Source of the DNA: Oscillospiraceae bacterium | GTDB taxonomy: Bacteria; Bacillota; Clostridia; Oscillospirales; CAG-272 | Reading direction: 5' to 3' | Length of the DNA stretch: 64,000 bases | Assembly (NCBI GenBank): GCA_015064735.1 | Contig: SVRP01000006.1 | Location: forward strand, 38,037-102,036 | Shown here: piece by piece, positions 19,392 through 22,058 of the stretch | Numbering within the stretch: the first letter of the stretch is position 1 | Layout: every line of letters starts with the position of its first letter | Made by a program: the position numbers and the translations under genes | Notes under the pieces: model-generated | Told to the model about the DNA's origin: nothing | Databases searched by the model: none | The model's input: the letters and a program-made list of their open reading frames with translations, nothing else

Positions 19392-19483
19392 GGAGAGATG
19401 GCTGAGCTGGTCTAAGGCGCACGACTGGAAATCGTGTGTAGGCTAATACCCTACCGAGAGTTCGAATCTCTCTCTCTCCGCCA
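19392..19483 (+). tRNA. tRNA-Ser(GGA)
   Basis: Acceptor GGAGAGA/TCTCTCC-G-CCA, anticodon arm CACGA-CTGGAAA-TCGTG, long variable arm, GTTCGAATC T-loop. Confidence 0.97.
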
Positions 19484-19517
19484 AAAAATCCTCGTTCTTC
19501 GGAACGAGGATTTTTTT
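19483..19517 (+). terminator. terminator after tRNA-Ser
   Basis: AAAAAATCCTCGTTC-TTCG-GAACGAGGATTTTTTT. Confidence 0.85.
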
Positions 19518-19713
19518 ATCCAAGCCGCAGGCTTGGTATATCATCGCCGCACGAAGTGCGGTGCATATCATCAAGGGCGGCAAGCCGCCCTTGTATCTCA
19601 TCACGCGCCAGCGTGCATTTCCCTGCGGCTTGATGATATACAATGCTCCGCATTGATGATATACCGCAACAAGTTGCGGATGATATACACGCCTTCGGCG
19701 TGATTGGGACGCG
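19515..19713. repeat. modular multi-hairpin interspersed repeat, copy 1
   Basis: Near-identical to 20343-20575 over the first ~120 bp and last ~50 bp; hairpins separated by TATATCATC/GATGATATA-like linkers. Confidence 0.92.
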
Positions 19714-19749
19714 CAACCAAATTCCCACCCTCAAATTCCCGATTTGCAG

Positions 19750-19778
19750 TTGATTTTTGGGCGAAAATATGCTATAAT
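19750..19778 (+). promoter_or_regulatory. sigma-A promoter of the 19802 gene
   Basis: TTGATT-N17-TATAAT with extended TG. Confidence 0.75.
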
Positions 19779-19801
19779 AAACACAGAAAGGCGGTGGGGA
19801 G

Positions 19802-20254
19802 ATGAAATTTAATACATATGATAGGACACCAAGGATAAAAACACAAAAATGGATTAAAATATTTCTGATTTCATTTTTTGTATTCTTTACCGCCATTATG
19901 TTGTTTGTGGGAATCATAATATCAATTGATAATCAGAGTATATTCCCAATTCTCATCACCGTTATATCTCTTACGTTTGTCGCATTCATGGCGAGTATGT
20001 ATATTTATAATGCATATAAGGCGTATTTTGAAATTGATGCAACCACAATTAAATTGATTAGTTACCCTTTTTTCAAAAGGCGTGAAAAAATCTTTTCGTT
20101 GAGTGACATCAAAAAAATAAAGCGGCGATATGGAGGTCGAGTGGGAATCTCGTATCTCATATTTATAAATCAACAAAACAAGGTTTTGTTTCAAACCATG
20201 AATGTCCCTGAAATAAAATCCTATTTTGAAGGTTTAGGCTTTAATCTTGAATGA
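19802..20254 (+). CDS. AT-rich hypothetical two-TM membrane protein, possible bacterial PH-like C-terminus
   Basis: Two hydrophobic helices then a beta-rich basic tail (FSLSDIKKI); visibly more AT-rich than flanking core genes. Confidence 0.7.
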   Translation: MKFNTYDRTPRIKTQKWIKIFLISFFVFFTAIMLFVGIIISIDNQSIFPILITVISLTFVAFMASMYIYNAYKAYFEIDATTIKLISYPFFKRREKIFSLSDIKKIKRRYGGRVGISYLIFINQQNKVLFQTMNVPEIKSYFEGLGFNLE

Positions 20255-20298
20255 TAAAGTAGGCAATCGTCTATGTATCAAAATTACAGTTATTTGCC

Positions 20299-20344
20299 AA
20301 CAAAAACAGAACATTTGTCTACCGACAAATGTTCTGTTTTTGTT
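20299..20344 (+). terminator. terminator with perfect 21-bp inverted repeat
   Basis: AACAAAAACAGAACATTTGTC-TACC-GACAAATGTTCTGTTTTTGTT. Confidence 0.8.
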
Positions 20345-20575
20345 TATCCAAGCCGCAGGCTTGGTATATCATCGCCGCACGAAGTGCGGTGCATATCATC
20401 AAGGGCGGCAAGCCGCCCTTGTATCTCATCACGCGCCAGCGTGCATTTTGCCTGCGGCTTGATGCAATAAGGGCGTAGCCCGTCATTCGCCGAAGGCATA
20501 TACAACACTTCGTGTTGGTGATATACCGCAACAAGTTGCGGATAATATACACGCCTTCGGCGTGATTGGGACGCG
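20343..20575. repeat. modular multi-hairpin interspersed repeat, copy 2
   Basis: Direct repeat of 19515-19713 with different central hairpin modules at 20465-20520. Confidence 0.92.
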
Positions 20576-20591: not shown

Positions 20592-20620
20592 TTGAATTAC
20601 TTTGCAAAATATGATATAAT
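20592..20620 (+). promoter_or_regulatory. sigma-A promoter of the 20721 gene
   Basis: TTGAAT-N17-TATAAT with extended TG. Confidence 0.75.
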
Positions 20621-20720
20621 GCTTTCGAGGTAAGTGATTGTATGGCTAAAAAATATTTATTGATCTATTCGGAGCAACTTGTTTGCTGTGCCGCCTCAAT
20701 CTATTAAAAGGAGTAAAAAT

Positions 20721-21326
20721 ATGAAAAAAGTACTATCTTTAATCTTGGTATTTGTATTTCTTTTTTGTTTTACATCCTGCTCATTTTTTAACCGCTTCAA
20801 AGGCGATATGAGTAAAATTGATTTCGATGAAGATAAAAATTTATTGTACAGCGGGAACACGTATTACCGTGCAGACGATCGCTTTACGGTTTGGACAGAT
20901 GAAGATGTGGTTGAAATTGGATGGCACTCTCAATTCCCCTTTTTCCCCGATATGCACTATTATGTTTTTAATGACGAAAACCCTTTATTCATTTTCTGTG
21001 CCAATGGAAAAAGCAGTGTGTATTTCAGTTTGTTTTTCAGGTCGGATTATGATCTTTACGGTGCCGTATACACGGTCAATAATACCGACATTGAGATAGT
21101 TCTTAACTCTGACATATTGCCAAGCGACGTCAACGCTTCCGCAATAAAATACGAATATTCGCAGCAATTCCACATGCGCTTAAAGGATGACTCCCGTGTT
21201 CGGGTAGAGTTCTCGGGACCGTATAAGCATGGCGATAACTGGTATTTTTTGCACTCGGACAATGCTTGGCTCTTAAGCGACCAATTTGTTACGATGTTAA
21301 TAAATAACGGTATTATAAACGAATAA
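20721..21326 (+). CDS. hypothetical lipoprotein
   Basis: AGGAG RBS, MKK signal peptide with lipobox FTSC; aromatic-rich mature part. Confidence 0.75.
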   Translation: MKKVLSLILVFVFLFCFTSCSFFNRFKGDMSKIDFDEDKNLLYSGNTYYRADDRFTVWTDEDVVEIGWHSQFPFFPDMHYYVFNDENPLFIFCANGKSSVYFSLFFRSDYDLYGAVYTVNNTDIEIVLNSDILPSDVNASAIKYEYSQQFHMRLKDDSRVRVEFSGPYKHGDNWYFLHSDNAWLLSDQFVTMLINNGIINE

Positions 21327-21386: not shown

Positions 21387-22058
21387 TTACATCACATAAA
21401 ATATCACAGCCATTGAATGGCAAAGACTGCCGATGACGGTAAATATATGGAATACCGAGTGAAAATACCTTTTCTTCACCGAAAAGAAGTAAACTCCGAA
21501 TGTATAAAACAGTCCCCCAAGAAGAACCAGCATAAACCCTTTGTGTCCGAGACTTCTATAGGTTTGCGGAATCGAAAACACAACAGCCCAGCCCATTGCG
21601 ATATAACATATCATGCTGAACGACTTATACTTTTTCAGGTCAATGGCATTCAGCGTCATCGCCAATATTGCCGTTCCCCAGACAAGAGCAAAGGTTCCCC
21701 ATGCGGCAAGCGGATAATCTTTCGCCACCGAGCATACAAGAATGGGAGTATAAGTTCCCGATATGAGAAAATATATAGAACAGTGATCCATTATCTGAAA
21801 CACCTTTTTCGCCGTATTCGGACGCAGTCCGTGATAAATGCTTGACATGGTATACAGAGTTATCATGGAAAGTCCGAACATAGCTCCGCAGAGCACTCCC
21901 ACTGTTTTTCCGTTAAATGCCGATATCACCACGCAAAGCACGAGGGTTATTACCCCCACAGCTCCGCCTACTATATGACTTACCATATTGAATATCTCTT
22001 CGCCCTTGGTATAAAAGGGTAAAATTCTGTCCTTCAGCACTACTCTTTTTGTTAACAC
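21387..22058 (-). CDS. hemolysin III / PAQR family membrane protein
   Basis: EEIFNMVSH, SSIYHGL, DHCSIYFLISGTYTP, HSVFHIF. Confidence 0.92.
   Translation of the reverse strand: MLTKRVVLKDRILPFYTKGEEIFNMVSHIVGGAVGVITLVLCVVISAFNGKTVGVLCGAMFGLSMITLYTMSSIYHGLRPNTAKKVFQIMDHCSIYFLISGTYTPILVCSVAKDYPLAAWGTFALVWGTAILAMTLNAIDLKKYKSFSMICYIAMGWAVVFSIPQTYRSLGHKGFMLVLLGGLFYTFGVYFFSVKKRYFHSVFHIFTVIGSLCHSMAVIFYVM

Follow-up and report, generated by a model that had tools for sequence, protein, structure and literature searches.

Hairpin-linker arrays behind tRNA genes and between gene cassettes of Oscillospirales: a candidate folded-DNA junction module linked to PF05635 proteins

Two copies of a palindromic repeat stand behind the tRNA-Ser(GGA) gene in a 64,000-nucleotide stretch of an Oscillospiraceae genome (GenBank assembly GCA_015064735.1, contig SVRP01000006.1, positions 38,037 to 102,036; hereafter the window), which raises the question of what this repeat does there and which protein might act on it. 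A sequence-only reading of this DNA had described the repeat as a modular array of 9-nt linkers and strand-polarised mini-hairpins, and had proposed either an RNA scaffold or a non-autonomous element of the repetitive extragenic palindrome (REP)/bacterial interspersed mosaic element (BIME) type, recognised as single-stranded DNA (ssDNA) by an enzyme encoded elsewhere. Here, we show by comparison of many copies that the two window copies are members of a superfamily of hairpin-linker arrays, including the RNA motif Gut-1 as a half-array. Judged from its surroundings, the array is a cis-acting DNA module placed behind tRNA and transfer-messenger RNA (tmRNA) genes and at every junction of small self-expressing gene cassettes. 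We tentatively propose that it is a folded-DNA junction module of these tRNA-linked cassettes, displaying repeated words to a cognate protein of the PF05635 family. Three parts of this context were absent from the sequence-only reading, namely, the position between tRNA-CCA end, terminator and promoter, the role at cassette junctions, and the PF05635 partner gene.

Direct inspection of the sequence located all repeat elements of both copies at their expected coordinates (Table 1), including the linkers that flip to their reverse complement halfway through the array, as had been described before. Linker matches with at most one mismatch numbered 31 in the window against an expectation of 16 +/- 4, and 11 of these 31 fell inside the two copies of about 200 nt. 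Folded as ssDNA, copy 1 reached -53.8 kcal/mol on the top and -56.5 kcal/mol on the bottom strand, compared with about -33 +/- 3 kcal/mol for shuffled sequences (z = -6.5 and -7.2, respectively; none of 200 shuffles was as stable), and the RNA fold z-score of the array was -5.6. A chance origin of the repeat is excluded.

The repeated unit is oriented and consists, on one strand, of an 8- to 9-nt word (xATATCAT-C) followed by a hairpin with a C-G closing pair. Its basic plan is three units on the top strand followed by three units on the bottom strand, found in 73 of the 133 arrays that we parsed, with a range of 1 to 5 left and 0 to 6 right units; half-arrays also occur. Among the distinct hairpins of these 133 arrays, 76 of 118 in the left half and 51 of 73 in the right half are perfect palindromes, while their sequences are unrelated. 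Loops in the left half comprise 27 GNA and 12 GNNA versus 5 TNC, and those in the right half 35 TNC and 7 TNNC versus no GNA or GNNA at all. This reversal of loop polarity implies that the right half is the left-half unit written on the bottom strand. The suggestion that GNA loops belong to the top strand on the left and to the bottom strand on the right thus holds for the family but only in part for copy 1, where the top-strand loop is CAAG in H2 as well as in H5. Across the family, we show that only the hairpin structure, the C-G closing pair, and the GNA/GNNA loop are constrained, and that the hairpin sequence is free. The d(C-GNA-G) and d(GCGNNAGC) hairpins are exceptionally stable DNA mini-hairpins (PMC3201870, PMC13037366), and H1 and H3 of copy 1 carry these motifs literally. 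Strand polarity together with C-GNA-G loops points to recognition of a folded single strand, and with a structure that is kept while its sequence is replaced, the ssDNA-recognised, REP/BIME-like character of the hairpins proposed earlier finds partial support.

The first three units are enclosed by an 11-nt inverted repeat, A and A*, which covaries across at least eight subfamilies. In copy 1 the main form is CAAGCCGCAGG (19521-31), matched without error in reverse complement by CCTGCGGCTTG (19622-32), whereas the C6d and C21 copies of the source genome carry CATTGCGAAAG/CTTTCGCAATG, locus L110 carries CAAGCCGACAG/CTGTCGGCTTG, and Gut-1 carries UAUAUUCGCC/GGCGAAUAUA. Additional versions were found in other subfamilies, with complementarity kept despite sequence change, so that the possible closure of a fold by this pair, already suspected from copy 1, is now backed by conservation and covariation. 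The segments equivalent to A and A* in reverse orientation share just 2 to 5 nt. The linkers behave differently. A nested four-way-junction fold with left-right linker pairing, suggested by minimum-free-energy prediction, was ruled out by the statistics of linkers L3 and R1, which at the sole variable linker position are anti-correlated (complementary in 18 of 73 arrays; odds ratio 0.12, p = 1.7e-4), indicating that linkers are conserved as a word and not as a helix. The linker is nearly invariant whereas the hairpins turn over. Hairpin families are position-specific (CACGCG mostly at H3, CCGCAA at H5, CAAGGC or CACGCC at H6), and yet hairpin alleles at the six positions are near linkage equilibrium, with 1- to 3-fold enrichment and a minimum of 0.4-fold across the centre.

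The position of the array is as characteristic as its structure. Upstream sequence was sufficient in 116 copies; in 68 of them, a complete tRNA ends 34 to 50 nt before the A hairpin, always on the same strand, and these tRNAs represent 28 anticodon types. Between tRNA and A hairpin lies a bidirectional terminator alone, of which few versions exist, recurring behind unrelated tRNAs in different metagenome-assembled genomes (MAGs). The remaining copies stand behind tmRNA 3' ends, behind tRNA fragments of approximately 22 nt (T-loop to CCA), or behind a conserved cassette "trailer" ending in GCA or CCA. In the window the repeat module begins directly 3' of the CCA of tRNA-Ser(GGA), and the terminator at 19483..19519 is a component of the repeated module. 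Consensus scanning detected a TG-extended -10 promoter within about 50 to 110 nt 3' of every complete array and no promoter-like site facing into the array on either strand. By these predicted signals, the array fills the stretch left untranscribed after an intrinsic terminator and before the promoter that follows; at copy 1 this promoter (19750..19778) would drive cassette gene 1.

Such arrays are far more numerous than the window suggests. In the source genome (2.11 Mb, 31 contigs, 95% complete), 11 BLAST matches and 12 linker clusters were found, and 6 of 29 tRNA/tmRNA unit ends bear an array; the family is thus multi-copy, as supposed earlier, and the thought that only the two window copies might exist can be set aside. 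Array matches of up to 86% identity were present in 19 of 41 relatives, with a patchy distribution in the genus, plus six other families of the order. A search of the contigs of species-representative genomes with an exact 24-nt signature gave more than 119 signature-bearing contigs among the matches listed, all from Oscillospirales MAGs obtained from ruminant, other animal, and faecal samples. A plasmid collection contained no array match, and viral contigs contained two, one beside tRNA-Arg and the other at an internal cassette junction. The hairpin-linker family is a large and barely studied one in gut Clostridia.

The sole recurrent neighbour of the arrays is a gene for a 115-amino-acid protein of PF05635 (68.4 bits against a cut-off of 33.8, E = 7.5e-19), the family of Avd-like and 23S-rRNA intervening sequence (IVS) proteins (PMC10053308, PMC4990558), with PDB 2RLD as the closest solved structure (E = 1.6e-16). 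This gene lies downstream of about 13% of the array copies and, wherever present, is the first gene downstream of the array; in 0.79 Mb around arrays, 15 of 19 PF05635 matches were directly downstream of an array on the same strand. Inter-locus homology stops at the stop codon of the PF05635 gene. Conversely, an array of the same plan was found upstream of 14 of the 18 PF05635 genes with a readable upstream region in 12 genomes, and in the relatives these arrays sit behind tRNA and terminator where the flank is visible. Leader and full PF05635 gene follow the array at locus C29 of the source genome and at 15 other loci. Behind copy 2 of the window, the leader and the promoter ahead of a 21-codon remnant of the gene (translation MAKKYLLIYSEQL... 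/ MAKKYLLIYSEQLVCCAASIY*) are intact, and the rest of the PF05635 gene is replaced by a lipoprotein gene.

Each PF05635 lineage has its own linker word: GTGATG, ATGATG, GTGAAG, ATGAAG, GTGATAT (the Gut-1 type), GTTATAT, GTTATGA, or GATGATAT. Proteins associated with the same word are 78 to 96% identical, identity does not exceed about 70% between lineages whose words are dissimilar, and similar words accompany similar proteins; the lineage of the window-type arrays is 39 to 53% identical to all other lineages. Outside the genus, arrays and PF05635 occurred together in 6 of 6 genomes and both were absent in 10 of 10. Separately, we noted PF05635 genes that lack a hairpin array and are instead immediately preceded by simple word repeats, tandem or inverted, such as five copies of GGAATTA, three copies of GGAGTTAGGATACA, or ATTATTCA/TGAATAAT (loci L213, L223, and L231, and upstream of C7:83861-84169 in the source genome).

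The two window copies delimit single-gene cassettes. Cassette genes 1 and 2 are both located between tRNA-Ser and a conserved HlyIII-family gene, whose protein gave no match in an exact-protein look-up. In a genus relative, the HlyIII-family gene directly follows a different array at tRNA-Ser, without both window cassettes. At this site, one relative carries another array subfamily and another carries different repeats, so that exact insertion boundaries are not definable there. Array copies occur between single accessory genes not only in the window (C9a/C9b) but also at further places in the source genome (C6a, d, c, b; C20b, c) and in loci L066, L103, and L110. Cassette gene 1 is a rare accessory gene, with homologues in 3 of 301 genomes of the order. 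The tRNA-3'-like piece GTATCAAAATTACAGTTATTTGCCA at the end of its cassette also precedes the own-genome copy C20b, there behind an unrelated gene. Copy 2 is 99% identical to copy 1 over the left 110 nt and 91% over the right 78 nt, and its 33-nt insert is shared with the own-genome copy C4 and locus L108.

Six metagenome contigs encode an identical cassette gene 1 and offer a view of exchange within the array. They are identical to the window from R1 (in L204 from R2) through gene 1 and copy 2 to approximately 470 nt past gene 1, and further left they show four versions of the left half and three or more of the terminator; one has another cassette gene upstream. Strain-level homology is thus lost leftward of the array centre, and the shared right side with differing left halves indicates that the left half travels with the upstream unit and the right half with promoter and gene. 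This pattern is what a recombination site would show, but it is also compatible with homologous recombination between copies. Three strain-level breakpoints lie at the centre or the R2 linker and one (L210) lies outside the array. An all-against-all megablast to map breakpoints yielded too few events, confounded by shared linkers. One deletion is bounded by TCTC microhomology. In the public metagenome contig behind L204, positions 1-70 are Illumina adapter, an assembly artefact.

Table 1. Features of the tRNA-Ser(GGA) locus, in window coordinates
Feature	Position	Strand	Basis or detail
tRNA-Ser(GGA), encoded CCA end	19392..19483	+	ARAGORN and Rfam tRNA match, 55.9 bits
Bidirectional intrinsic terminator	19483..19519	+	15-bp stem, A-run before and T-run after, end TTTATCC; inverted repeat and terminator scan
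Copy 1, whole extent	19520-19713
Copy 1, A hairpin CCAAGCC-GCA-GGCTTGG	19520..19536	+	5' arm and loop 19521-19531 complementary to A* 19622-19632
Copy 1, left half-array	19537..19615	+	three units of linker and hairpin
Copy 1, left linkers	19537-45; 19564-72; 19594-602		TATATCATC; CATATCATC; TATCTCATC
Copy 1, left hairpins H1; H2; H3	19545-19563; 19572-19593; 19602-19615		loops GAA; CAAG; GCCA
Copy 1, centre	19616..19632	+	variable 6-nt spacer and A* (CCTGCGGCTTG, 19622-19632)
Copy 1, right half-array	19632..19702	+	three inverted linkers and hairpins
Copy 1, right linkers	19632-40; 19655-63; 19679-87		all GATGATATA
Copy 1, right hairpins H4; H5; H6	19641-19655; 19664-19679; 19688-19702		loops TCC; CAAG; TTC
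Predicted promoter	19750..19778	+	TTGATT, 17 nt, TG-extended TATAAT; consensus scan, 10/12 matches
Cassette gene 1	19802..20254	+	150-aa membrane protein; no Pfam family above cut-off
Cassette 3' end	20272..20347	+	degenerate tRNA-3'-like piece (GTATCAAAATTACAGTTATTTGCCA) and terminator (arms 20299-20319, 20324-20344)
Copy 2 of array	20348..20575	+	A 20348-64; left linkers 20365-73, 20392-400, 20422-30
Copy 2, centre and right			A* 20451-61; right linkers 20517-25 and 20541-49
Copy 2, first right linker, split			GATG 20461-64; 33-nt insert 20465-20497; ATATAC 20498-503
Conserved leader with promoter and PF05635 gene remnant	20592..20707	+	promoter 20592-20620; 21-codon remnant 20642-20707
Cassette gene 2	20721..21326	+	predicted lipoprotein, 201 aa
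Conserved HlyIII-family gene	21387-22058	minus

Further elements were observed around the arrays. Two unrelated inserts, of 33 and approximately 39 nt, are located at one linker point, GATG^ATATAC, or, in a left-hand linker, at its complement; linker-splitting inserts of this kind are present in the window (20465-20497) and in loci L163, L174, and L202. The identical position of unrelated inserts hints that the word contains a fixed point at which cleavage or insertion takes place. The cassette trailer, which stands just ahead of terminator and array, consists of two direct repeats (CACCTTTTGTTCGTTTTTACCCC ... TTTAGACACCTTTTnnnnnCGTTTAAGGCA), and its last letters, GCA or CCA, fall at the exact point at which a tRNA would finish. 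It was found in the source genome at C6:44440-44495, C20:35830-35895, and C29 (after a 133-codon open reading frame) and in loci L084, L117, L122, L131, L138, L173, L174, and L195. At L197 (G037:C3, about 1240-2080), a similar trailer, GTATCAAAATTA, accompanies a 31%-identical homologue of cassette gene 1 behind tRNA-Ser, with no hairpin array. Another module, GAGGGTTCGAATTCATACGCAAAAC...AAAATATCTTTTTTGTAGCCCATAGAC, with a degenerate T-arm-like word, lies between tandem arrays (C21:940-985 and C6:45880-45930 in the source genome; L083, L096, L130, L132, L166, and L180). A GC-rich module of approximately 170 nt is flanked on one side by a complete tRNA that has its own terminator and on the other by a directly repeated stretch of about 22 nt from the 3' end (T-loop to CCA) of that tRNA; it starts with an inverted copy of the same T-arm/acceptor strand, has no Rfam match, and looks like a miniature tRNA-integrating element or the scar of one (L108 3990-4180, minus strand; L110 1945-2170, minus strand; L194, reverse complement, about 190-335; L094 850-1020). 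A ACTTTTTACCTTTTCACTCTTCACTT-like repeat stands behind the terminators of three other tRNA genes of the source genome (C2:10140, C20:34838, C29:71381), whose tRNA 3' flanks host several repeat families.

According to our proposal of a folded-DNA junction module, the stable hairpins of the array would, when its DNA is single-stranded or extruded, hold the AT-rich words open as regularly spaced binding sites. The putative binder of these words would be the cognate Avd-like four-helix-bundle protein of PF05635, which for the window copies might act in trans from the gene at C29. The bound, folded array may be the place of cassette joining and exchange, with the left half staying with the upstream unit, i.e., the tRNA or the previous cassette, and the right half, promoter, and gene moving together, a splitting that can be likened to that of the attC site of integrons. 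In an extended form, which we consider conceivable yet rather unlikely, arrays and cognate PF05635 proteins would constitute an undescribed gene-cassette capture system anchored at tRNA/tmRNA 3' ends. The folded array would then serve as the attachment site, an Avd-like protein specific to each lineage, and in effect programmable, would read its repeated single-strand word, and this protein might recruit a host or other strand-exchange activity.

A number of observations weigh against these proposals. We detected no recombinase near any array and no recombinase family recurrent in the 119 loci, and the three PF00589 tyrosine recombinases of the source genome (C26, C14, C7:88.9 kb) are distant from every array. 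Breakpoints and mosaicism could arise without a dedicated system, through RecA-type recombination or through template switching between copies. At L210 an identical PF05635 protein is encoded behind a different tRNA with differing array and leader, showing that breakpoints also fall outside arrays, and a homologue of cassette gene 1 is located behind tRNA-Ser in another family without any array. The correlation between word and protein could result from plain physical linkage, and it has an exception, a PF05635 pair 97% identical with words one base apart. Within the genus, PF05635 is also present in genomes without a detected array of the window-type subfamily, where the relation is blurred by other PF05635 lineages. 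Finally, a test for strand preference comparing G-T with A-C wobbles gave 10 versus 4 and 3 versus 4 events, which is not significant; raw mismatch counts in the left half, before reduction to events, were 26 G-T versus 8 A-C.

Four other explanations deserve consideration, and the enzyme suggested by the sequence-only reading, a HUH/Y1 protein (RAYT or IS200/IS605 TnpA) mobilising the array in trans, is the one with by far the least to recommend it. A conserved 5' word followed by a hairpin does resemble the guide-plus-hairpin logic of IS200/IS605 ends and REPs, and the two insert types splitting the linker at the same point would suit such an enzyme. However, PF01797 (Y1/RAYT) had no match in the source genome, despite positive results of the same search in 6 of 14 control genomes. 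Among the 41 relatives, Y1 genes were present in 8 of 19 array-bearing (42%) and 9 of 22 array-free genomes (41%), that is, without association, and G003, G008, and G028, which are 95 to 100% complete, have arrays but no Y1 gene. No recurrent enzyme gene was found within 4 kb of the 119 loci, where only syntenic host genes, an ABC transporter, and a MATE/MurJ-like protein recurred. This brings the HUH/Y1 explanation close to refutation and leaves the earlier interpretation partly supported, in its REP-like, folded-single-strand aspect and not in its HUH/RAYT mechanism. The repeat might also do without any dedicated partner, as a selfish or neutral REP/BIME-like sequence that persists in the harmless gap between terminator and promoter, is kept uniform and reshuffled through gene conversion and through template switching at hairpins, and maybe exerts a generic structural effect, for instance as a gyrase site or back-up terminator. 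Its multi-copy, extragenic occurrence at 3' ends of transcription units, its variable unit number, the TCTC-bounded deletion, the patchy species distribution, and the lack of an enzyme gene nearby are all consistent with this idea. Nevertheless, we deem it unlikely, since it accounts neither for a near-invariant linker amid hairpin turnover and position-specific hairpin families, nor for the precise start after CCA behind 28 tRNA types and the tight link to one protein family with word-matched lineages.

The same protein link can be read in terms of gene regulation, in which PF05635 would bind the words as an operator or insulator array shortly ahead of a strong promoter and control its own gene as well as other cassette promoters in trans. 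A variant of this explanation envisages insulation from read-through and supercoiling of a highly transcribed tRNA gene; in either form, exchange inside the array would be a by-product of repetition. The promoter close to every complete array, the first-gene position of PF05635 with a word that tracks its lineage, and the hairpin-less repeats directly upstream of some PF05635 genes (L223, L231, L213, and C7 of the source genome) agree with regulation. We nevertheless regard it as somewhat improbable, though with slightly more in its favour than a repeat without partner, because duplex sites can do without interposed GC mini-hairpins whose GNA loops are polarised and without a closing repeat that covaries, PF05635/Avd proteins are not known as transcription factors (PMC10053308), and the precise start after CCA and the tRNA-3' fragments ahead of internal copies are left unexplained. 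A structured noncoding RNA, as Gut-1 was classed in 2010, would comprise a stem-closed multi-hairpin domain and a hairpin tail binding PF05635 as RNA, transcribed either by polymerase reading through the upstream tRNA or cassette, or off the opposite strand with its end at the bidirectional terminator. The array has the features typical of such RNAs, in that its unpaired words are conserved, its stems vary, a long-range stem covaries, and hairpins are tied to their position; in addition, the RNA fold z-score is low, Weinberg et al. rated Gut-1 as a likely RNA (PMC2864571), and the terminator would also work on the bottom strand. Yet a terminator lies directly in front of the array, and promoter-like sites facing it are lacking on both strands, as far as consensus matches tell. 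Unit polarity flips mid-array and is opposite relative to the tRNA in the sister subfamilies L216, L219, and L221, so that no single transcript carries one kind of unit; the half-order of these sisters and the terminator in front argue against a single functional transcript. Moreover, C-G-closed triloops are a DNA optimum and not an RNA optimum (PMC3201870), and there is no significant G-U excess. An RNA function therefore seems to us quite improbable.

With word families that match the lineage of the adjacent Avd-like protein, a motif that lacked an explanation becomes a protein-nucleic-acid pair open to testing. The address of the module is fixed (tRNA-CCA, terminator, array, and promoter), and in gut and rumen bacteria of a dominant group it marks where swappable accessory genes meet, possibly providing a route of gene exchange without integron integrases or HUH transposases. 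A capture system, if true, would be the first function assigned to Gut-1 and a unifying role for PF05635, a family also found in diversity-generating retroelements (DGRs) and rRNA intervening sequences. In practical terms, the arrays break MAG assemblies and can be mistaken for features resembling clustered regularly interspaced short palindromic repeats or for RNA features.

Comparison with known systems places the arrays between several of them. Like integrative and conjugative elements, integrative and mobilizable elements, and cis-mobilizable elements accreting at Firmicutes tRNA genes, they involve tandem accessory DNA behind tRNA/tmRNA genes and junctions marked by T-loop-to-CCA fragments. 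In contrast to these elements, array units measure 0.3 to 2 kb and have one gene and no integrase, the same junction module stands behind 28 tRNA types, and internal tRNA fragments often mismatch the adjacent tRNA, as at copy 2 of the window. Integrons resemble them in single-gene cassettes separated by imperfectly palindromic sites whose structure is kept more than their sequence, with boundaries that in the arrays may likewise fall inside the site, and with implied ssDNA folding. Unlike integrons, however, the arrays have no IntI or nearby recombinase, are anchored at many tRNA genes instead of one attI, and precede cassettes that are not promoterless but have their own TG-extended promoter and terminator; compared with attC, the site is branched, approximately 200 nt long, and built of repeated units.

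With the REP/BIME-RAYT systems of Enterobacteria and Pseudomonas, the arrays share extragenic multi-copy palindromic units in both orientations, short conserved linkers, and a location at transcription-unit ends, and recognition of folded ssDNA is plausible for both. They differ in the absence of RAYT/Y1, in replaceable hairpins of 13 to 22 nt with the linker as the conserved element, in an orientation that switches by block (3 + 3) and not alternately, and in their anchoring at tRNA CCA ends between terminator and promoter. Non-autonomous IS200/IS605 derivatives, which have a TnpA-Y1 or TnpB partner and subterminal hairpins on one strand at both ends, are set apart from the arrays by the absence of a Y1 gene from the source genome and by the placement of array hairpin units on opposite strands in the two halves. 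DGR Avd proteins and the S23p open reading frame of 23S rRNA IVS are members of PF05635, as is the array-linked protein, and members of this family are found alongside selfish or mobile elements that are bound up with structured nucleic acids (PMC10053308, PMC4990558). The lineages linked to arrays are distinct ones, each with its own word, and no reverse transcriptase, template/variable repeats, or rRNA context was seen at the examined loci, although no dedicated search for these was made.

The closest relative is Gut-1, a 77-nt candidate small RNA described "only in human gut" with no context or partner (PMC2864571). Searching Rfam with the window at gathering thresholds returned the tRNA match only, and at E <= 10 no relevant or credible family, Gut-1 included, was found on either window copy; the match to a described Rfam family contemplated earlier is only half borne out. 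Two other copies of the family do match Gut-1 (RF01706) below its 50-bit threshold, the C21 copy of the source genome with 24.5 bits and L086 with 30.4 bits, on the strand on which units are in R-type orientation. Like the arrays, Gut-1 has at least three small hairpins with short covarying stems joined by a conserved purine-rich 7-nt word, GUGAAAU or GUGAUAU. The window family has another word (GATGATATA) and another closing repeat, and its GNA-loop half comes first, whereas in the Gut-1-type subfamilies (L216, L219, L221) the TNC-loop half comes first after the tRNA. Read with its flanks, the published Gut-1 alignment comprises a tRNA, a terminator, a start with UAUAUUCGCC, GUGAUAU-joined hairpins, closure by GGCGAAUAUA, and then hairpins joined by AUAUCAC, the inverted word. 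This is the same bipartite plan, which makes Gut-1 a half-array of a sister subfamily; the motif, an orphan since 2010, can now be seen as half of a larger mirrored DNA module.

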